DNA from: Stellaceae bacterium
GTDB taxonomy: Bacteria; Pseudomonadota; Alphaproteobacteria; ATCC43930; CGMCC-115725
DNA: 64,000 bases
NCBI GenBank assembly: GCA_036510675.1
Contig: DATCDN010000138.1
Span: 109,199 to 173,198, forward strand
Direction of reading: 5' to 3'
Position 1 is the stretch's first letter. Each line of letters begins with the position of its first letter. Under the pieces are notes generated by a model that did no database searches, was not told the DNA's origin, and saw only the letters and a list, made by a program, of their open reading frames with translations. Shown piece after piece: positions 2,423 to 44,577 of this stretch. A program made the translations under genes and the position numbers.

Positions 2423-3415
2423 TTAGCCGCCCGTCACACTCATATGACGCGACACCGCCGGCCGGTCATGGCGGCGGTCGATGATGAAATCATGGCCCTT
2501 GGGCTTGCGGTCGATGGCGGCACGGATCGCGGCCTCGACCGGGGCGTCGCTTTCGGCGGCGCGCAGCGGCGCTCGCAGGTCGGCGGCATCCTCCTGCCCC
2601 AGGCACATGAACAGCGTGCCGGTGCAGGTCAGCCGCACGCGATTGCAGCTTTCGCAGAAATTATGGGTCATCGGCGTAATCAGGCCGAGTCGCTGGCCGG
2701 TCTCGCGGACGGTGTAATAGCGCGCCGGACCGCCGGTGCGATAATCGCTCTCATCGAGCGTCCAGCGCTTGCGCAGATCGGCGCGCACCACCGACAGCGG
2801 CAGATATTGATCGACGCGGGTGCCGGAGCCAACCTCGCCCAGCGGCATGACCTCGATCAGCGTCAGATCGAATCCCTGCTCGCCGCACCAGCCGAGCAGC
2901 CGGTCGAATTCGTCATCGTTGACGCCCTTCAGCGCCACCGCGTTCAGCTTGACCTGGAGGCCGGCGGCCTTGGCGGCGGCGATGCCGTCCATCACCTGCT
3001 CGAAGCGGCCCCAGCGGGTGATCGCCTTGAACTTGGCGGCATCGAGCGTGTCGAGCGAGACGTTGATGCGCTTGACGCCGGCGGCCTTCAAATCCTGGGC
3101 ATATTTGGCGAGCTGGCTGCCGTTGGTGGTCAGCGTCAGCTCGTCGAGGGCGCCCGTCTCCAGGTGCCGGCCCAACGCCTTGAACAGCCACATGATATTG
3201 CGCCGCACCAGCGGCTCGCCGCCAGTCAGGCGCAGCTTCTTGACGCCGAGCCGGATGAAGGCGGTCGATAGCCGGTCGAGTTCTTCCAGCGTCAGGATTT
3301 CCGCCTTGGGCAGAAACGCCATGTCCTCCGACATGCAATAGACGCAGCGGAAATCGCAACGGTCGGTCACCGACACGCGCAGATAGGAGATGGTTCGGCC
3401 GAAGGGATCGATCAT
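2423..3415 (-). CDS. moaA: GTP 3',8-cyclase MoaA (radical SAM, molybdenum cofactor biosynthesis)
   Basis: It has CDFRCVYCM (CxxxCxxC) and a C-terminal CxxC cluster ([14 protein letters not shown]). The ATG at 3415 gives the canonical [18 protein letters not shown]-terminus. The ORF is open up to 3460. Confidence 0.85.
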
Positions 3416-6751: not shown

Positions 6752-9256
6752 GTGACCATCGAGACGCTATTGCCCGCCGGCGGTATCGGCGACGACGATC
6801 CGCTGACCCCGGTGCTGATGCCGCAATGGCTGCGCCGGGTGCGCTATACCGGCTTGCTGTTCGGCGCGCTGGGCGTGGTGCTGTTCGCCGCCATCGCGAG
6901 CGGGCTGCTGACCAGCCGGCTGGCGCTGGCGCTGGCGTTGTTTTTCGTGATGCTGGCGGCGATGAGCGGCGTCGCCATTTTTGTCGCGCGCATGGGGGTG
7001 CGCGAGGTCGCGGGCCGCGCGGCCCTCCTCAGCCAGGCGATCGCGGCCTCCCCCAACGCCCACCTGATCGTCGCGCCCGAAGGCTCGATCACCTATGCCA
7101 ATTCGGCGTTCCGGCGCTTTTTCCCCGAGATTCGCACCCTGCCGCTGGAAGTCATCGCCCTTAGCCTGGTCGGCGATGAGGCGGCCAAGGAGTTCCAGCG
7201 CCTGGAGACCGAGGCGGTGGAGCGCGGCCGCGCCAGCGGGCGCCTCGCGATCCGGCGCAGCGCCGGCGCGACGCTGTGGTTCATCGTCTCCGCCAGCCTG
7301 CTGCCGCACAGCCCCGGCTATATGCTGTGGAGCTTCGAGGATATCACCCAGCGCCAGGAAATGGAGCAGGTGATCCGCGAGGAGGGCGAAACCCCCGCCG
7401 ATTTCCTCGACAGCTCGGCGACCGGCTTCTATTCGGTCGATGGCGAGGGCCGCTTCCTGTTGGTCAACCAGACGCTCGCCGATTGGTTCGGCCGCACGCC
7501 GGGCGAACTGGTGGAAAGCGGCGCCCGCCTCATCGATTTCGTCATCGCCGATGGCCCGATCCGCGGTCCCGCCTATGCGCCGTTCGCCGGCGGCGGCGAA
7601 GGCGCCCAGCGGGGCGAGCTGGTGCTGCGCGCCACCGAAGGGCGGCTGATTTACGCCTCGGTCAGCCAGAGCGTGGTGCGCGCCGGCGACCAGCTGCGCA
7701 CCCGCTCGGTGGTGCGCGACCTGACCTCGCAACATGAATGGGCCGAGGCGCTGAAGCGCTCGCGGCTGCGGTTCCAGCGCCTGTTCGCCAACGCGCCGGT
7801 CGGCATCGCGCTGCTGGGCGATCGCGGCCGGATCGAGGAGGCGAACCGCGCGCTCGGCGATATGCTGGGCTCGACCGCCGTCGATCTGATCGGGCGCGAA
7901 CTGGCGGATTTCGTCATCGGCGAGGATCGCGGCCAGGTCGATGCGCATATCGCCGCCGCCAGCCAGGGGCCGGCGCGGCCGGTGGAGGCGCGGCTGATGG
8001 GGCCGCGCGAGATTTGGGCCTCGCTGTTCCTCAGCCGCCTTGAGGGCGAGGACGAGGCGGGGCTGGTCCTGCATGTCATCGACACCACCGAACAAAAGAG
8101 CCTCGAGACCCAATTCGCCCAGTCGCAGAAGATGCAGGCGGTGGGTCAGCTCGCCGGCGGGGTCGCGCATGATTTCAACAATCTGCTGACGGCGATGATC
8201 GGGTTCTGCGATTTGCTGCTGGTGCGGTTCAAGCCGGGCGATCCGTCCTTCGCCGACATCATGCAGATCAAGCAGAACGCCAATCGCGCCGCCAATCTGG
8301 TGCGGCAATTGCTGGCCTTTTCCCGCCAGCAGACCTTGCAGCCGACGGTGCTGAACCTGACCGAGGTGCTGGCCGAACTGTCGAACCTGTTGCGCCGGCT
8401 GATCGGTGAGAAGATCGAGCTGCGCGTCGTGCATGGCCGCGATCTCGGCCTGGTCGAGGTCGATCAGGGCCAGATGGAGCAGGTCGTAATCAATCTCGCC
8501 GTCAATGCCCGCGACGCGATGCCGAATGGCGGCGTGCTGACCATCCGTAGCGCCAACGCCACCATCGCCAGCCCGCTGCGGCGCGGCGTCGAGGTGATGC
8601 CGCCCGGCCAATATGTGCTGATCGAGGTCGGCGATACCGGGTTCGGGATTCCCAAGGAGAATCTATCGCGCATTTTCGAACCGTTCTTTTCCACGAAGGA
8701 GATCGGTAGCGGCACCGGCCTTGGCCTCTCCACCGTCTATGGCATCGTCAAGCAGACCGGCGGCTTCGTCTTCATCGACAGCGAGCCCGGCAAGGGCGCG
8801 CAATTCTCGATCTATCTGCCGCGCGCGCGCGGCAAGGCGGCGGTGCCGGTGCGCCCGATCGAAGCCGGCGACGACAGCGCCGACCTGACCGGCACCGCGA
8901 CGGTGCTGCTGGTCGAGGACGAGGATCCGGTGCGGCTCTTCAGCGCCCGCGCCCTGCGCAACAAGGGTTATCGCGTGATCGAGGCGAAGAGCGGCGAGGG
9001 CGCGCTCGAAATCGTCGAGCGTGGGGCCGAGCAGATCGACCTGATCATTTCCGACGTGGTGATGCCGCGCATGGACGGGCCGGAGATGGCGGCGAAGGTG
9101 CGCGAAAGCCACCCCGACATGAAGGTGATCTTCATCTCGGGCTATACCGAGGAAGCGTTCCGCGACCGGCTGACCCACGATGTCCATTTCCTGCCCAAGC
9201 CCTATAATCTGAAACAGCTCGCGGCCAAGGTGAAGCAGGTGCTGGAGGACGCGTAG
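6752..9256 (+). CDS. cckA: hybrid sensor histidine kinase CckA
   Basis: It has two N-terminal TM helices, PAS regions, the HisKA motif [14 protein letters not shown], HATPase motifs ([25 protein letters not shown]) and a C-terminal receiver ([24 protein letters not shown]). The start is the GTG at 6752 or the ATG at 6818. The tracked ORF start at 6167 overlaps dksA and is rejected. Confidence 0.85.
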
Positions 9257-9260
9257 GGAT

Positions 9261-9462
9261 CAGTCGTCAGTTATCAGTCTTCAGTTATCAGTCTTCAGTT
9301 ATCAGTTATCAGTCTTCAGTTATCAGTCCTGATCGCTATCGACCAACCGCCCAAAAACTGACGACTGATAACTGACGACTGATAACTGATAACTGACGAC
9401 TGACTGATAACTGACGACTGACAACTGACAACTGATAACTGTCAACTGACAACTGACAACTC
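9261..9462. repeat. inverted heptamer-array hairpin (10 x CAGTNNT, 23-nt spacer, 15 x ANNACTG plus one 4-nt partial)
   Basis: Units were read directly. The left arm is 9261-9330 and the right arm 9354-9462. When left unit n pairs with right unit n+1, the order of unit types is mirrored and 64 of 70 positions are complementary, with one 4-nt bulge (9403-9406). Confidence 0.95.
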
Positions 9463-9478: not shown

Positions 9479-10363
9479 ATGAAATCGATCGTCACCGGCG
9501 GCAATCCGGTCGCAACGGTCCTGACCTTTTTGGTCTTTGCGCTGGCGGTGCTGTCGGGCTTCATCGCCCATGGCGGCGATGCGCCGGCTTTCTATGTCAT
9601 TGCCCTTATTCTGGTGGTCATCGCGCTGTTGATACCGCGCACCCTGATGATGGCCAATCAATGGGAGCGCGCGGTGATCCTGCGCGTCGGCAAGCTCGAA
9701 GCGGTGCGCGGTCCCGGCCTGTTCATCATCATCCCGTTCGTCGATTCGGTGGCGGCGATGCTCGACCAGCGCATCCAGACCACCGAGTTCAACGCCGAAT
9801 CCGCGCTCAGCAAGGACACCGTGCCGGTCAATATCGACGCGGTGATCTTCTGGCAGGTGTTTGATTCGGAAAAGGCCGCGCTGGAGATCACCGATTTCCG
9901 CTCCGCGATCGCCCGGGTGGCGCAGACCAGCCTGCGCGAGATGGTCGGCTCGTCCTTCCTCTCGACGCTGCTGTCGGATCGCAAGCAGGCCGACGAGGTG
10001 CTGCGCGCCGAGATCGGCCGCAAGATCGCGGGCTGGGGCATCACCGTTCACACCGTCGAGATTCGCGATGTCGGCATTCCGATGGCGCTGCAGGACGCGA
10101 TGAGCCGCCAGGCGCAGGCCGAGCGCGAGCGCCAGGCCCGCGTACTGCTGGGCCAGGCGGAGGTCGAAGTCGCACAGAAATTCCTCGATGCGGCCGAGAC
10201 CTATTCCAAGAACCCGGCGGCGCTGCAATTGCGGGCGATGAACATCATCTACGAGACCACCAAGGAACGCGGCGCCACCATTCTCATTCCGACCAGCATG
10301 ATCGACGCCATGAATCCGGGCGGCATCCTGGGGCTGGCTAGGGCCGCGCAGGAGGCGAAGTAG
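9479..10363 (+). CDS. SPFH/band 7 (stomatin/prohibitin-like) membrane protein
   Basis: 294 aa with an N-terminal TM segment. The SPFH core reads WERAVILRVGKL..GPGLFIIIPFVDS..TKDTVPVNIDAVIFWQV, followed by a C-terminal coiled coil QAQAERERQARVLL. The SD GGAGG lies at 9464-9468. Confidence 0.85.
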   Translation: MKSIVTGGNPVATVLTFLVFALAVLSGFIAHGGDAPAFYVIALILVVIALLIPRTLMMANQWERAVILRVGKLEAVRGPGLFIIIPFVDSVAAMLDQRIQTTEFNAESALSKDTVPVNIDAVIFWQVFDSEKAALEITDFRSAIARVAQTSLREMVGSSFLSTLLSDRKQADEVLRAEIGRKIAGWGITVHTVEIRDVGIPMALQDAMSRQAQAERERQARVLLGQAEVEVAQKFLDAAETYSKNPAALQLRAMNIIYETTKERGATILIPTSMIDAMNPGGILGLARAAQEAK

Positions 10364-27226: not shown

Positions 27227-27610
27227 ATGTCGGACATTACATGGCTGCTGATCGCGGTCATCGTCGGCCTGGTGCAAATCATGCTCGCGGCGCAGATGGC
27301 ACAAAAATATCGTAGCCTCGATTGGAACGTCGGTCCGCGCGACACCTCGATTCCGGTTGAAGGCACCGCCGGCCGCTTGGAGCGTGCCTATCGCAATTTC
27401 CTCGAGACGTTTCCCCTGTTCGCGGCGGCGCTGATCGCGGTGGTGATCCAGCACAAGTCGGGTGGCACGTCCCATTGGGGCGCGCTGCTCTACGTCATCG
27501 CGCGCATCGTCTATGTGCCGCTGTATGCCCTGGGCGTGAAGTATGTCCGCACAGCGGTCTGGGCGGTCTCGATCGTCGGCATCGTGATGCTGATCGTCGC
27601 GGCGTTCTAA
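27227..27610 (+). CDS. MAPEG family membrane protein (glutathione-transferase-like)
   Basis: 127 aa with 3-4 TM helices. RAYRNFLETFPLFAAAL and YVIARIVYVPLY are typical of bacterial MAPEG. Confidence 0.75.
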   Translation: MSDITWLLIAVIVGLVQIMLAAQMAQKYRSLDWNVGPRDTSIPVEGTAGRLERAYRNFLETFPLFAAALIAVVIQHKSGGTSHWGALLYVIARIVYVPLYALGVKYVRTAVWAVSIVGIVMLIVAAF

Positions 27611-27616
27611 AGGGGA

Positions 27617-27749
27617 CAGTTATCAGTTATCAGTTATCAGTTATCAGTTGTCAGTCTGATAACTGACGACTGACGACTGACGACTGACGACTGACGACTG
27701 ACGACTGATAACTGACGACTGACGACTGATAACTGACGACTGACGACTA
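27617..27749. repeat. inverted heptamer-array hairpin (6 x CAGTNNT directly abutting 13 x ANNACTG)
   Basis: The left arm is 27617-27658 (CAGTTAT x4, CAGTTGT, CAGTCTG). The right arm is 27659-27749 (ATAACTG x3, ACGACTG x9, ACGACTA). It fills almost the whole 143-bp gap between the two convergent stop codons. Confidence 0.95.
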
Positions 27750-27753
27750 CCCG

Positions 27754-28716
27754 TTAAACGTCAATCACCAGAATATCCGACAGCGCCCGCGACACGCAGG
27801 GCGTAAAGATCTTGCCGCTCTCATGTTCCTGCTTGGTCAGGATCAGGTCGCGATGGTCGGGCACGCCCGATACGATATTGGTGAGACAGGTCGCGCACAC
27901 GCCTTGTTCGCACGAGACCGGAATATCGATCCCGACGGCGCGTAGCGCCTCGACCACCGTCTTGTCCTTGGGGATGGTAATGAGCTGGCCGGTCTTCTTG
28001 ATTTCGACCAGAAACTCGGTCGCGTCTCCGGGTTTCGCCGCGACGCCGGTGAACCGCTCAAGGTGGAGATGCGCATCGTCCCACCCCAGCTTCTTCGCAA
28101 CATCGACGGCGACGTCCATCATGATGCCGGGGCCGCAAATATAGACATGCTTGCCCGGATCGGGCGCGCCGAGGAAGGCCGCGAGGTCGGGGCGCTGTTC
28201 CTCGGGACCGTCATCGAAGTGGAATTGTACCTGGGGCGCGAATTCCGCCGCCGTCACGCGTTCGTAAAACGCCGTGCGGGCGCGGCTCCGTGTGCAGTAA
28301 TGGAAGGTGAACGGCGCCGCGACGGCATGGAGGCGCTCGGCCATAGCGAGGATCGGCGTGACGCCGATGCCGCCGGCCAGCAGTACCGTCTCCTTGGCGT
28401 CGGTCGCCAGCGGAAAGAGATTGTGCGGCCCGCGAATGACGACGGTATCGCCCTCCGCCACGGTGTCGCAGAAGGCAGCGGAGCCGCCGCGCCCGGCTAG
28501 CTCGCGCTGGACGCCCAGCACATAGCGATGGCGCTCCGACGGCGCGTTGCTCAGCGAGAATTGCCTGATCTTGTCGCCGATCTTGACGTCGAGATGGGCG
28601 CCCGCCTCGAACGGCGGCAATTCCTTGCCGTCGGGATCGACCAGTTCATAGGAATAGATGCCGGTCGCTTCTTCGCGCTTCGCGGCGATCCGCGTCGAAA
28701 ACCAATCGGAACTCAT
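27754..28716 (-). CDS. PDR/VanB-family oxidoreductase (flavin reductase plus plant-type 2Fe-2S ferredoxin domain)
   Basis: 320 aa. It has the flavin-binding RQFSLSN, NAD-binding LLAGGIGVTP and the C-terminal cluster CEQGVCATC. Confidence 0.85.
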   Translation of the reverse strand: MSSDWFSTRIAAKREEATGIYSYELVDPDGKELPPFEAGAHLDVKIGDKIRQFSLSNAPSERHRYVLGVQRELAGRGGSAAFCDTVAEGDTVVIRGPHNLFPLATDAKETVLLAGGIGVTPILAMAERLHAVAAPFTFHYCTRSRARTAFYERVTAAEFAPQVQFHFDDGPEEQRPDLAAFLGAPDPGKHVYICGPGIMMDVAVDVAKKLGWDDAHLHLERFTGVAAKPGDATEFLVEIKKTGQLITIPKDKTVVEALRAVGIDIPVSCEQGVCATCLTNIVSGVPDHRDLILTKQEHESGKIFTPCVSRALSDILVIDV

Positions 28717-40119: not shown

Positions 40120-41196
40120 ATGCTCGCCTACGCCATTCGCCGCATCCTGCTGATGATCCCGACCCTGTTCGCGATCATCGTCGTCAATTTCTTCATCATT
40201 CAAGCGGCACCGGGCGGGCCGGTCGATCAGATGATCGCGCAGCTCAAAGGGCGCGGCAACGTCACCGGGCGCGTCACCAGCGCCGGCGGCGAGCTCGCGC
40301 CCAATGCCTCGGCGCAAAGCCGCGCGTCGCGCGGCATCGACCCGGCACTGCTGGCGCGGCTCAACAAGCTCTATGGCTTCGACAAGCCGCCGCTCGAACG
40401 CTTCTGGATCATGATCAGGCACTATGTGACGTTCGATTTCGGCACCAGCTTCTACAGCGACCGGCGCGTGATCACCCTGCTCGTCGATAAATTGCCGGTG
40501 TCGCTGTCGCTGGGCCTGTGGACGACGCTGCTGGTCTATCTCATCTCGATCCCGCTCGGCATCGCCAAGGCGGTGCGCGATGGCTCGGCGTTCGATGTCT
40601 GGACCAGCGCCGTGGTCATCGTCGGCTATGCGATTCCGGGCTTCCTGTTCGCGATCCTGCTGGTGGTGCTGTTCGCCGGCGGCAGCTATTTCCAATGGTT
40701 CCCACTGCGCGGCCTCGTCTCCGACGATTGGTCGGAGCTCGATCTGTTTCATCAGATACTCGATTATTTCTGGCACATCGCCTTGCCGGTCACGGCGCTG
40801 GTGATCGGCGGCTTCGCCAGCCTGACCATGCTGACCAAGAATTCCTTCCTCGAGGAAATCAACAAGCAATATGTCGTGACCGCGCGCGCCAAGGGGTTGA
40901 GCGAGCGGCGCGTGCTCTATGGCCATGTCTTCCGCAATGCGATGCTGCTGGTGATCGCGGGCTTTCCCGCCGCGTTCGTCGGCATCCTCTTTACCGGCGC
41001 CCTGCTGGTCGAGGTGATCTTCTCGCTCGACGGGCTGGGCCTGCTGGGCTTTCAGGCCGCGCTGGGCCGCGACTACCCGGTCATGTTCGGCACGCTCTAC
41101 ATCTATACGCTGGTCGGGCTGGTGATGAAGCTGATCAGCGATCTGACCTACATGCTGGTCGATCCGCGCATCGATTTCGCGACCCGCAACACATGA
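40120..41196 (+). CDS. yejB: ABC transporter permease YejB
   Basis: 358 aa. [27 protein letters not shown] is the DppB/OppB-type N-terminus. Confidence 0.85.
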
Positions 41197-42224
41197 TGGG
41201 GCGGCCGCTTACGCCGCTGATGCGGCGGCGCCTCGCCAATTTCCGCGCCAACAGCCGCGGCTATTGGTCGATGTGGTTTTTCCTGGTGCTGTTCGTCGCC
41301 AGCCTGTTCGCCGAATTCATCGCCAACGACCGGCCGCTGATCGTGTCCTATGACGGGCATTTCATGTTCCCGATCATTCGCGATTACACCGAGACCGAGC
41401 TGGGCGGCGACCTGCCGATCGACGCCGATTTTCGCGATCCCGAAGTGGCGGCGCGCATCGAGGCGAAGGGCTGGATGCTGTGGCCGCTGATCCCGTTCGA
41501 TTATCGCGCCATCAATTTCCACCTGCCTTCGCCCGCGCCGTCGCCGCCCAGCGCCGTCAACTGGCTGGGGACCGACGATCAGGGCCGCGATGTGTTCGCG
41601 CGCCTCATCTATGGCTTCCGCATTTCGGTGCTGTTCGGCCTGGTGCTGACGGTGCTGAGCTCGATCATCGGAGTCGCGGCCGGCGCAATCCAGGGCTATT
41701 ACGGCGGCCTGACCGACCTCGCGGCACAGCGGTTCCTCGAAATCTGGTCGGGCCTGCCGGTGCTCTATCTGCTGATCATCCTCTCCAGCATCATCCAGCC
41801 AAATTTCTGGTGGCTCCTGGGCATTATGCTGCTGTTCTCGTGGATGTCGCTGGTCGATCTGGTGCGCGCCGAATTTCTGCGCGCGCGCAATTTCGACTAT
41901 GTCCGCGCCGCCAAGGCGCTCGGCGTGTCGAACCCGGTGATCATCTGGCGCCATGTTTTGCCCAACGCGATGGTGGCGACGCTGACCTTCCTGCCGTTCA
42001 TCCTCAATGGCTCGATCACGACGCTGACCTCGCTCGATTTCCTTGGCTTCGGCTTGCCGCCCGGCTCGCCGTCGCTGGGCGAATTGCTGTCCGAGGGCAA
42101 GAGCAACCTGCAAGCGCCATGGCTGGGCCTGACCGCGTTCTTCACGCTCGGCCTGATGCTGAGCCTCTTGATCTTCATCGGCGAAGCGGTGCGCGACGCC
42201 TTCGATCCGCGGAAGATGGGATAG
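41193..42224 (+). CDS. yejE: ABC transporter permease YejE
   Basis: 343 aa. The start overlaps the yejB stop (ATGA). It is a DppC/OppC-type permease with [17 protein letters not shown]. Confidence 0.85.
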
Positions 42225-42233
42225 GGTAATTGT

Positions 42234-42261
42234 CAGTCTTCAGTTGTCAGTTTTCAGTCAG
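42234..42261. repeat. left heptamer arm of the four-helix-bundle cassette (CAGTCTT CAGTTGT CAGTTTT CAGTCAG)
   Basis: Read directly. The last unit overlaps the AGGAG SD (42260-42264) of the downstream ORF. Confidence 0.9.
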
Positions 42262-42266
42262 GAGAA

Positions 42267-42626
42267 ATGCAGAATTTCCGCGACCTCAAGGTTTGGAGCA
42301 AGGCTCATGCGGTTGTGATTGCCGTGTACGCCGCGACCGAGCCGTTTCCAGCGGCGGAGCGTTTTGGCCTCACAAGCCAGATGCGTCGGGCCGCTTCCTC
42401 GATTCCGGCGAATATCGCCGAGGGATGCGGCCGTTCGAGCAATGCCGATTTGGCGCGCTTTCTCCATATCGCATTGGGATCGGCAAGCGAGCTCGACTAC
42501 TTTTTACTGCTCGCCCGCGATCTGAAATTCTTAAAGCCTCCAATTCACGACGATCTCCGCGCCAATGTTCAAGAGGTCAAACGAATGCTCGGCGGCCTGA
42601 TCGGTCGCGTCAGAACTGATGACTGA
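42267..42626 (+). CDS. four-helix-bundle protein (23S rRNA intervening-sequence protein / DGR Avd fold family)
   Basis: 119 aa. FRDLKVWSKAH, ERFGLTSQMRRAASSIPANIAEGCGR and FLHIALGSASELDYFLLLA match the TIGR02436/PF05635 pattern as I remember it. Confidence 0.85.
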   Translation: MQNFRDLKVWSKAHAVVIAVYAATEPFPAAERFGLTSQMRRAASSIPANIAEGCGRSSNADLARFLHIALGSASELDYFLLLARDLKFLKPPIHDDLRANVQEVKRMLGGLIGRVRTDD

Positions 42627-42646
42627 AAACTGATGACTGAAAACTT
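42612..42646. repeat. right heptamer arm of the cassette (AGAACTG ATGACTG AAAACTG ATGACTG AAAACTT)
   Basis: Read directly. It contains the ORF stop (42624-42626) and the yejF ATG (42633-42635). It includes a perfect 14-nt tandem duplication (42618-42631 = 42632-42645). Confidence 0.9.
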
Positions 42647-44243
42647 ATTGTCCGTCTCCCACCTCTCGGTCGCGTTCCGATCCGGTGACTCGATTGTCGC
42701 CGCCGTAAAGGACGTCTCGTTCGACATCGCCAAGGGCGAGACGGTCGCGCTGGTCGGCGAATCCGGGTCGGGGAAATCCGTGACGGCGCTATCGATTCTG
42801 CAACTCCTGCCCTATCCCGCCGCCAGCCACGGGCCGGGCAGCAGCATCAAGTTCGAGGGGCGCGAGCTGGTCGGCGCGCCCGCCAAGACACTGCGCGCGG
42901 TGCGCGGCAACCGCGTCGCGATGGTGTTTCAGGAGCCGATGACCTCGCTGAACCCACTGCACACCATCCGCAAGCAGATCACCGAGACCCTGTTCCTGCA
43001 CAAGCATCTGGGCCGCGCCGCGGCGACGGCGCGCGCCATCGAATTGCTGAAGCTGGTCGGGTTGAGCGAGGCGGAAAAGCGGCTCGACGCCTATCCCCAT
43101 CAATTGTCGGGCGGGCAGCGCCAGCGCGTGATGATCGCGATGGCGCTCGCCAACGAGCCGGCTCTGTTCATCGCCGACGAGCCGACCACCGCGCTCGACG
43201 TCACCATCCAGGCGCAACTCCTGAAATTGCTCAAGGAATTGCAGGCGCGCTTCGGCATGGCGATGCTGATGATCACCCACGATCTGACCATCGTGCGCAA
43301 GGTGGCGGACCGGGTGATGGTGATGACGCAAGGCGAGATCGTCGAGCGCGGCACCGTCGCCGAGATCTTCGCCCGGCCCCAGCATCCCTATACCAAGCGG
43401 CTGCTCGCCGCCGAGCCCAAGGGCGAGCCGGTGTCGATCGAACCGCCGCCGCCGGTGGTGCTGGAGACCAAGAATCTGCGGGTGTGGTTCCCGATCCGCG
43501 CCGGCCTGTTCCGCCGTACCGTCGGCTACATCAAGGCGGTGGACGGCGTCGATGCGGTGGTGCGGCAGGGCGAGACGCTGGGCATTGTCGGCGAGTCCGG
43601 GTCCGGCAAGACGACGCTGGCGCTGGCGCTGTTGCGGCTCACCCGGAGCGAGGGCGATATCATCTATGCCGGCCGGCCGATCGATGGCATTTCGGAGCGC
43701 GCGATGCGCCCCTTACGCCGCGAATTGCAGATTGTGTTCCAGGACCCGTTCGCCAGCCTGTCGCCGCGCCTCTCGATCGCGCAGATCGTCGAGGAAGGGC
43801 TGACGGTGCATCGCATCGGCGCCAATCGCGACGAACGCCGCGTGCTGATTCGCGACGTGCTGCAAGAGGTCGGGCTCGATCCCGCGGCCGCCGACCGCTA
43901 TCCGCATGAATTTTCCGGCGGCCAGCGCCAGCGCGTCGCCATCGCCCGCGCCCTGGTGCTGAAGCCGCGCCTCGTCATGCTGGACGAGCCGACCTCGGCG
44001 CTCGATGTCTCGATCCAGGCGCAGATCGTCGATCTGTTGCGCGATCTTCAGCGGCGGCATGGCCTCGCCTATCTCTTCATCAGCCACGATCTGCGCGTGG
44101 TGCGCGCGCTGGCGCACGATCTGATCGTGATGAAGGACGGCAAGGTGGTCGAGGCCGGGCCGGCGAAGGAGATTTTCGCGGCGCCGAAAGAACCTTACAC
44201 CCGCGCGCTCATGGCCGCCGCTTTCGACCTTGCCGTGGCTTAG
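42633..44243 (+). CDS. yejF: ABC transporter ATP-binding protein YejF (fused double ATPase)
   Basis: 536 aa. There are two Walker A motifs ([18 protein letters not shown]), two signatures ([16 protein letters not shown]) and two Walker B motifs. The N-terminus [15 protein letters not shown] parallels E. coli YejF MTQTLLAIENLSVGF. Confidence 0.9.
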
Positions 44244-44577
44244 GCGCGCGCTCGCGCCGCCGCCAGCCGCGCGCGACATGGGCCTTCAGCACCAGCTCGC
44301 GGCCGTAGAATCCCAGCCATAATTGCAGGGCGAAGAACACCGCCGCCATCGCCGCCTGCCCACCCAGGCTCCAATTGCGCGGCAGCAGCCAGACCAGCCC
44401 CAGATCGACCACCCACAGCGCCACGAAAATCGCGCCCCAGCGCGGCAGGCGCTGAACGAACAGCGGAATCCCAAGCACGCCCGAGAACAGGAACAGAATC
44501 CAGTCGAACCCGTCGCGGAACGGCTTCACCGCGCCGGTCTTCGGGTTCTCCAGCAGCAGCTCGCGGACCTGGCTCAC
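44209..44577 (-). CDS. small membrane protein (DUF2628-like)
   Basis: 122 aa with two or three TM helices and a basic C-terminus. Its 3' end overlaps yejF by 35 nt, tail to tail. Confidence 0.45.
   Translation of the reverse strand: MSQVRELLLENPKTGAVKPFRDGFDWILFLFSGVLGIPLFVQRLPRWGAIFVALWVVDLGLVWLLPRNWSLGGQAAMAAVFFALQLWLGFYGRELVLKAHVARGWRRRERAPKPRQGRKRRP

Follow-up and report, generated by a model that had tools for sequence, protein, structure and literature searches.

In a 64,000-nt stretch of contig DATCDN010000138.1 (the window; Stellaceae bacterium, assembly GCA_036510675.1), the start codon of a yejF-like gene lies within a perfect 14-nt tandem repeat, which we propose to be the outer portion of an inserted cassette's right arm. 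With a probability that we put at roughly 0.6, a cassette of the type known from intervening sequences (IVS) of 23S rRNA, carrying a four-helix-bundle (4HB) open reading frame (ORF), sits between yejE and yejF, its right arm was re-patterned and overprinted the yejF start, and yejF is translated through coupling. As reconstructed in this Stellaceae-like alphaproteobacterium, the cassette would consist of four nnnTCAG heptamers, a Shine-Dalgarno (SD)-like AGGAG, a conserved 4HB ORF and four ACTGAnn heptamers.

In relatives, the heptamer ACTGATG would recreate the native yejE/yejF overlap with the 4HB ORF as upstream partner. In the window lineage, one extra base near the 4HB 3′ end would have moved the stop one heptamer inward, leaving a 6-nt gap, and the innermost heptamer would have become a second ACTGATG, giving the perfect 14-nt repeat and a mini-ORF; such re-patterning would have proceeded by conversion or point changes and not by array growth. 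In the transcript, a predicted arm–arm helix of 33–37 bp would close off the 4HB ORF and bury the yejF ATG. Ribosomes finishing the 4HB ORF or the mini-ORF could then melt the right arm and reinitiate at the yejF ATG, and yejF would be translated mainly via such reinitiation. The cassette would thereby take over from yejE as the coupling partner of yejF, and arm overprinting may have changed yejF codons 1–4 from M-A/P-D/E-P to M-T-E/D-N.

Heptamer arms and codons at the 4HB–yejF junction

A sequence-only reading of this locus had described GATGACTGAAAACT as occurring twice in tandem, and direct reading, Tandem Repeats Finder (TRF) and a second repeat search agree on both copies and their positions (Table 1). 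TRF reports 42614–42645 as period 14 (2.3 copies, 100% matches) and also gives a period of 7; the repeat is perfect across 32 nt. What had been said of the codons in the two copies was confirmed as well. The first copy supplies the last codons of the 4HB ORF (...ACT GAT GAC TGA, with the TGA at 42624–42626), an arm-supplied stop seen family-wide, and opens a mini-ORF whose TGA shares A42633 with the yejF ATG (42633–42635) in a TGATG overlap. The second copy yields a YejF N-terminus of native type, MTENLL being found also in homologues P0001 and P0016 and MTDNLL in three others. The yejF ATG follows the 4HB stop after a gap of 6 nt (42627–42632), and no GGAG-like SD motif is present in the 20 nt 5′ of it. 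The left arm contains at 42249–42260 the exact reverse complement (AGTTTTCAGTCA) of both 42620–42631 and 42634–42645. Pairing of 42248 with 42632 adds a 13th nucleotide for the inner copy, and 12 nt match in the outer one; the sequence-only reading had given 12–13 nt.

Nine perfect tandem duplications with a period of 12–30 occur in the window, every one of them within its three heptamer arrays, and zero in 20 first-order Markov simulations of the window; the periodic array is thus far beyond chance. Once the array is accepted, the 14-nt perfection is unremarkable in itself, because a perfect 2+2 pattern in a 4-heptamer array built from ~3 variants (AAA, ATG, ACA) has a chance of ~0.15, by arithmetic from the arms of relatives.

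The left arm is made of four heptamers (TTGTCAG, TCTTCAG, TTGTCAG and TTTTCAG, 42230–42257) and a fifth, degenerate unit, TCAGGAG (42258–42264), that contains the SD-like AGGAG. It is open in all three frames up to this motif, with which it ends, and is also 14-nt periodic (93% identity). The right-arm heptamers (ACTGATG, ACTGAAA, ACTGATG and ACTGAAA, 42615–42642, followed by the degenerate ACTTATT, 42643–42649) are inverted with respect to those of the left arm, ACTGAnn ×4 standing against nnnTCAG ×4. The third of them contains the yejF ATG and the fourth encodes yejF codons 2–4, and the last 4HB codons and TGA also fall inside this arm. ACTGA units present TGA in all three frames within three units (21 nt), and therefore any frame entering the arm ends there, the 4HB frame included; the variant ACTGATG creates the stop-start overlap TGATG.

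The product of the inserted ORF matches PF05635 (E=5.7e-38, 129.8 bits, cut-off 33.8), TIGR02436 (E=2.2e-36, 124.4 bits, cut-off 24) and Xanthomonas XCC0516 (PDB 2gsc; E=2.8e-20). An identical 4HB protein carries a source annotation that assigns it to Stellaceae. The ratio of nonsynonymous to synonymous substitution (dN/dS) of the ORF against relatives is 0.04–0.22, and it is under purifying selection. The GC content at third codon positions (GC3) is 0.64 in the 4HB ORF and ~0.87 in yejE and yejF, in a window of GC 0.66 overall; this composition, atypical for the host, is maintained across lineages. Synonymous divergence of the 4HB ORF against host genes was considered as a test of co-divergence and dropped as uninformative, since GC3 differs (0.64 vs 0.87) and the proportion of synonymous differences (pS) is saturated.

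Table 1. Features at the yejE–yejF junction, with positions in the window
Feature	Position	Strand	Basis
Perfect 14-nt tandem repeat, GATGACTGAAAACT ×2	42618–42631 and 42632–42645	+	Direct reading, repeat search, TRF
Mini-ORF ATG ACT GAA AAC TGA	42619–42633	+	Direct reading
5′ strand of predicted 22-bp uninterrupted helix (pairs with 42620–42641)	42239–42260	+	Minimum free energy (MFE) fold, pairing probabilities
Left arm	42230–42264	+	TRF period 7 and 14, direct/inverted repeat search
4HB ORF, 119 aa, 23S rRNA IVS protein family	42267–42626	+	PF05635, TIGR02436, PDB 2gsc
Right arm	42615–42649	+	Reading, repeat search, TRF, column alignment with L085, L087 and L171
yejE-like ABC permease gene	41193–42224	+	Pfam BPD_transp_1; gene calls on near-identical contigs
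yejF-like double ABC ATPase gene, 536 aa	42633–44243	+	NCBIfam PRK15134 YejF, N-terminal alignment

Upstream of the cassette, yejE ends in TAG at 42222–42224, and its start overlaps the yejB stop as ATGA (41193–41196). Downstream, the yejF product scores 742 bits against NCBIfam PRK15134 YejF, under the equivalog cut-off of 834, and no exact match to the window YejF protein is on record. Promoter, terminator and Rfam scans of 41900–42900 returned nothing relevant, with no Rfam match. The cassette is surrounded by a direct 11-nt repeat (42229–42239, ATTGTCAGTCT, and 42647–42657, ATTGTCCGTCT; 10/11 identical). As a candidate target-site duplication this repeat was rejected: the right copy is native yejF coding sequence (codons 5–9) found at empty sites too, so that it is probably not a duplication of the target, and a comparable repeat is absent from relatives. 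At the 3′ end of yejF, a 122-aa minus-strand ORF without a Pfam match (44209–44577) overlaps the gene by 35 nt, and gene calling puts a counterpart of 120–125 aa there in every relative.

The other two heptamer arrays of the window lack an ORF and share the ACTGA core of the 4HB cassette. One comprises inverted arrays of ~10 and ~15 units (9258–9327 and 9357–9458, core CAGT/ACTGA) separated by a spacer of ~29 nt; it begins 2 nt past a stop TAG (9254–9256) and its end lies ~20 nt short of a gene start at 9479, which has GGAGGAGG of its own. The other (27614–27748) is an inverted pair of strongly unequal arms, ~6 CAGTTAT units and then ~12 ACTGACG/ACTGATA units, and it occupies nearly the whole gap between the convergent genes 27227–27610 (+) and 27754–28716 (−). 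Arrays of [AG]CTGAnn heptamers, including one inverted pair, are also present on an unrelated metagenome contig of lower GC (L143; 1–60, 200–220 and 1210–1345), in short gaps 5′ of two consecutive ABC ATPase genes.

Occupied and empty yejE–yejF junctions

We compared eleven informative junctions obtained by exact look-ups and homologue searches. A scan of genome contigs for YejF, used for N-termini, gave relatives of at most 75% identity among the matches listed (at least 600), and a metagenome scan with the YejF N-terminus gave none closer than 73% among the matches listed. Four near-identical contigs (L081–L084, 99.7–100% identical) have the same arms as the window. Furthermore, homologous 4HB cassettes, each of 4+4 heptamers, occupy this junction in three loci whose yejF product is 88–89% identical (L085, L087 and L171).

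The right arms of these loci read GCTGAAA ACTGATG ACTGATG ACTGAAA (L085), ACTGAAA ACTGAAA ACTGATG ACCGACA (L087) and ACTGAAA ACAGAAA ACTGATG ACTGACA (L171), and they align with that of the window column by column, with no 14-nt gap. Among the four, length differs only by a single additional base that the window has immediately ahead of the arm, and arm length is constant across ~10% protein divergence. Because the arms align without a 14-nt gap, the window shows, as judged from this alignment, no net gain of 14 nt; its right arm is best described as one of fixed length with re-patterned heptamers and a 1-nt indel. The third right-arm heptamer contains the yejF ATG in all four loci. In L087 and L171 this ATG overlaps the 4HB stop as TGATG, and so it does in L085 if a 2-nt frameshift is ignored, which strengthens the case for stop-start coupling. 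The pair has the sequence signature of translationally coupled genes, with stop and start within 6 nt or overlapping and a downstream gene without an SD, and termination-reinitiation at yejF is plausible on these grounds.

L085 has a counterpart of the mini-ORF (ATG ACT GAT GAC TGA), and L087 and L171 are without the second ATG; since these two have one ACTGATG copy, the doubled start-codon motif is not a conserved feature. Beyond that single copy, ACTGATG recurs in the second heptamer of L085 and in the first of the window, and it is found in neither of the ORF-less arrays of the window, being specific to the junction. Its different inner positions in L085 and the window suggest occasional copying of units inside the array. 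The window pattern would also arise from two point changes, and copying and point change are not separable here.

More distant loci are occupied in other ways. The L173 arm stops 4 nt short of a GC-rich ATGCCC. L175–L177, from a Stellaceae lineage further removed, have at this junction (positions 2937–3400) a homologous 4HB cassette whose arms use another heptamer core, GCTTA (left CTnTAAG, right AGCTTAn). The core is again mirrored left and right, and 10 nt separate the arm from the yejF ATG. Close 4HB homologues number in the thousands; 120 listed (P0121–P0240) are 64–91% identical and lie mostly on ~1-kb contigs, as would be the case if cassettes or arrays broke assemblies; many copies per genome or community are suggested.

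Five empty junctions were sampled, and at two of them the yejE stop and yejF ATG overlap as TGATG (L170, ggggTGATGCCCGATCCG; L088, gggcTGATGACTGATAACTTACTG). L169 has ATGGCTGA as an 8-nt yejE/yejF overlap, followed by TCCACTG; L086 reads TAGgccggcaACTGATGACTGAAAACTTACTG; and L172 has a 70-nt spacer without an SD before yejF. A neighbour-joining tree of yejF codons, with bootstrapping, pairs the window with the empty, GC-type L169 as its sister (100%) and recovers a seven-member crown clade (98%), the remainder being unresolved. A recombination test by sliding-window identity around the junction was noisy.

Two types of yejF 5′ end are distinguished. The GC-rich M-A/P-D-P-L-L type is found in L169 and L170 and, at the protein level, in many other homologues; the heptamer type, M-T-E/D-N-L-L (ATGACTGA(A/T)AAC in DNA), is found at all occupied crown sites and at the empty L088 and L086. 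The sequence-only reading had asked whether ATGACTGAAAAC is ancestral and single-copy, and the answer is divided: it is single-copy in the empty L086 and nearly identical in L088, and the sister of the window, L169, and L170 instead have ATGGCTGATCCA and ATGCCCGATCCG. The 5′ ends of L088 and L086 (ACTGATAACT and ACTGATGACTGAAAACT) fit the array consensus beyond chance expectation, and because of this match we read these two sites as arm remnants and MTEN as arm-encoded. Given that the closest yejF relative, the empty L169, has a GC-rich 5′ end and that two other empty sites have the heptamer type in single copy, the right arm probably overprinted yejF codons 1–4; a 5′ end derived from the arm is more likely than one recruited into the array. 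The native start ATGGCTGAT is one base apart from ATGACTGAT, and since the junction was already heptamer-like, this may have favoured capture of the site.

Predicted pairing and competing explanations

The predicted fold of the locus has an MFE of −180.6 kcal/mol (z = −3.7 vs shuffles). Its 22-bp uninterrupted helix (Table 1) has two G-U pairs at the yejF ATG and is extended by pairing of 42218–42237 with 42643–42660, for a total of 36 arm–arm pairs. Comparable helices are predicted in the window, L085, L087 and L171 (33–37 pairs), with the ATG paired and its ensemble probability of being unpaired at most 0.01. Opening the start region is predicted to cost most in the window (27.8 kcal/mol, compared with 6–18 at empty sites). 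Sense and antisense duplex energies, compared as a test for selection at the RNA level, gave inconsistent results: the sense duplex has the better energy in the four crown loci, and the antisense duplex in L173 and L175.

The exact complementarity of a left-arm 12-mer to both copies of the motif, one pairing of which the sequence-only reading took to sequester the yejF start and the other to leave it free, would suit an RNA switch in which the left arm alternates between them, masking or exposing the start and so regulating yejF. The predicted energies speak against it: the full-length register is worth −35.6 kcal/mol vs −23.8 and −21.6 for the sub-pairings, the outer-copy pairing would still cover the TG of the ATG, and the ATG is paired in the MFE fold. 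Because the alternatives are at least 12 kcal/mol worse and the outer pairing covers the TG, no competitive structure is predicted to free the start codon. Moreover, L087 and L171 have a single ATG-bearing copy (though the complementary ACTGAAA is itself tandem in L087) and Rfam gives no match, and we regard such a switch as very improbable. The same helix lends itself to another role, namely cleavage by RNase III, which would excise the 4HB segment and separate yejABE from yejF, whose expression would then depend on the processed 5′ end. The predicted helix (22 bp perfect, 33–37 bp overall) is a substrate of the right size, RNase III excises the homologous 4HB elements of 23S rRNA (PMC4990558), and the IVS in Azospirillum 23S rRNA has the same ORF between heptamer arms. 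However, a cut within the right arm would fall at or beside the yejF ATG and could destroy the start site, and conservation of TGATG in relatives is better explained by coupling. We hold processing of this kind to be somewhat unlikely, and still a serious parallel possibility, compatible with the proposed coupling to the 4HB ORF.

As to the origin of the repeat, the sequence-only reading had named array growth by slippage that recruited the yejF 5′ end, or an insertion footprint. In the slippage model, a recent 14-nt duplication during replication would have lengthened the right arm and drawn the native start of yejF into the array. The perfection over 32 nt, the confinement of the ATG-bearing heptamer to the junction, its shift between the first inner position in the window and the second in L085, which resembles unit copying, and the 14-nt periodicity of the left arm (93% identity) would all suit slippage. 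The relatives are at odds with it, all four related cassettes having 4+4 heptamers and aligning without a 14-nt indel, and copy number is uniform among five near-identical sequences, the arms of the four contigs closest to the window being identical. Furthermore, two base changes in the first heptamer separate the window pattern from an L087-like arm, within the substitution level of variable positions, and the perfect 2+2 pattern has a chance of ~0.15 in such an arm; growth by slippage is therefore doubtful. It is likewise improbable, though less so than the switch, that the cassette is a neutral passenger without a role in yejF expression, that yejF initiates alone at an AT-rich, SD-less start and that repeat, mini-ORF and stop positions are incidental. 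Consistent with a passenger, yejF is SD-less at empty sites as well, including L172 with its 70-nt spacer, the 4HB ORF is frameshifted in L085, and the arm of L175–L177 ends 10 nt before an unpaired ATG. Against it stand the retention of the TGATG overlap in L087, L171 and L085 and the burial of the ATG in a strong predicted helix in four lineages, which would block independent initiation unless the helix is opened.

Several observations weigh against our preferred explanation, in which an overprinted arm couples yejF to the 4HB ORF. In L085, a 2-nt insertion (~2380–2400) frameshifts the 4HB ORF, so that its stop falls 31 nt short of yejF. The ORF is a pseudogene there, or else the assembly is wrong; a real frameshift would mean that yejF is expressed in L085 without 4HB coupling. 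In L172, yejF is SD-less and uncoupled, which speaks against coupling as an obligatory state. The AGGAG stands 2 nt before the 4HB ATG, a short spacing for an SD. RNA structure at the locus is predicted throughout, and opening energies are noisy in long GC-rich contexts (13.9 kcal/mol in L085, 18.4 in the empty L170). The heptamer-type 5′ ends of the empty L088 and L086 are either footprints of loss or a sign that this end is older than the cassette, and, because the crown of the yejF tree is poorly resolved beyond the window and L169, we can only infer the order of gain, loss and overprinting.

Comparison with known systems

Coupling at overlapping stop and start codons (ATGA, TGATG) by termination-reinitiation is well known, for example from trp operon genes and MS2 phage genes, and it can be enforced by structure that hides the downstream start. 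The junction in the window resembles such pairs in its close stop and start, in a yejF without an SD of its own and in a start placed in a predicted helix that an upstream ribosome could open. It differs in that the upstream partner is the ORF of an inserted cassette and not the native neighbour. The 4HB protein belongs to the same fold family as Avd of diversity-generating retroelements (DGRs) and has weak matches to PF22296 (bAvd) and NF033474. Identity with DGR Avd was rejected: the NF033474 score is 29.9 bits vs a cut-off of 80, the neighbours are yejE and yejF, and no reverse transcriptase or template/variable repeat is adjacent.

Haemophilus hmw1A is reported to be a heptamer simple-sequence contingency locus with a 5′ untranslated region targeted by RNase III (PMC12721329). 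The likeness lies in tandem heptamers beside a start site, where copy number could alter expression. In the window, by contrast, the heptamers form paired inverted arms around an ORF, and copy number is stable, four lineages having 4+4 heptamers and five near-identical sequences agreeing in theirs. A phase-variable contingency locus was accordingly rejected, with copy number invariant, the arms of L081–L084 identical and 4+4 heptamers in all four crown cassettes.

Short tandem heptamer repeats (STRR) are a known repeat class of cyanobacteria. On cyanobacterial plasmids (L181, L182, L183 and L185), co-oriented 4HB genes lie between cas6 and cas4, cmr2 and cmr3 or hypothetical genes, and long heptamer arrays flank them. 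The left arm of the Nostoc punctiforme locus is built from TCAGGAG units, each with the SD-like AGGAG, and the 4HB TGA lies within the right arm. These loci share with the window the co-oriented insertion between operon genes and the heptamer-array flanks. Their heptamer cores, however, are unlike that of the window, the Pseudanabaena arrays are direct and not inverted, and no case examined has an arm that contains the start codon of the next gene. A cas-gene catalogue of 2013 lists 4HB genes between cas genes and says nothing of repeats (PMC3936711). Where a 4HB gene lies in a cas or transporter operon, it is probably a passenger and not part of the pathway.

In our literature search, no paper was found on operon-resident 4HB cassettes whose arms supply neighbouring stop and start codons, and for 4HB ORFs with heptamers or STRR only the Coxiella IVS paper and the cas-gene catalogue were found. 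Tentatively, and against the odds as we see them, 4HB ORFs with heptamer arms may form one widespread class of hairpin-bounded cassettes, of which the 23S rRNA IVS and many cyanobacterial arrays would be special cases, that settle at operon stop-start junctions and whose arms are kept complementary by a templated or concerted process. If so, such cassettes would be tolerable because the arms bring all-frame stops, an SD and sometimes a start codon, rebuilding the coupling of the host operon; the 4HB pentamer might be involved in keeping the two arms complementary; and the different mirrored cores (ACTGA and GCTTA) of homologous cassettes at the same yejE–yejF site would be explained. The cassettes may be mobile, shaped by selection on RNA pairing and made harmless by rebuilt translational coupling. 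The locus bears on the function of the IVS protein family, a question since the 1990s, and on the origin and mobility of intervening sequences. It offers a natural comparison set, with occupied and empty alleles of one operon junction, mirrored but differing cores and a host start codon captured by an arm. In practical terms, start-codon calls and N-termini beside such cassettes can be arm-derived.

Among described systems, the 23S rRNA IVS with an S23p/4HB ORF (Coxiella burnetii, Leptospira) comes closest. In Coxiella, RNase III cuts the 28-bp terminal stem of the IVS, and 2–3 tandem GACAGAT heptamers, their number varying among strains, lie upstream of the S23p ORF (PMC4990558). The window cassette shares with the IVS a PF05635 ORF within terminal inverted repeats that form a long stem (predicted in the window), and tandem heptamers that adjoin the ORF, as in the Coxiella and Azospirillum IVS; in the window, TRF finds period 7 on both sides. 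It differs in lying in a protein-coding operon, between yejE and yejF, and not within 23S rRNA (helix 25/45), in arms that overlap the stop and start codons of its neighbours, and in an ORF with an SD-like motif and under purifying selection, where the Coxiella ORF is decaying and probably untranslated. Since it lacks the defining 23S rRNA location, we do not file the cassette as an IVS, although its architecture is IVS-like.

The arm-encoded ends of the ORF recur across the family. 4HB homologues end in short arm-type tails (e.g., KTDN, KTDD, KADS and KLKTEN), and where read at the DNA level, in the window, L087, L171 and Nostoc punctiforme, the last 4HB codons and the stop lie in right-arm heptamers; mis-called N-terminal extensions of homologues resemble translated left arms. 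An unannotated 4HB ORF also lies inside a 23S rRNA gene on the Azospirillum lipoferum 4B plasmid AZO_p2 (L180, 14398–14730), between inverted arms of heptamer type (GGACGGA/GGACAGA units against TCCGTCC/TCTGTCT). It is a classical intervening sequence, laid out like the cassette between yejE and yejF.

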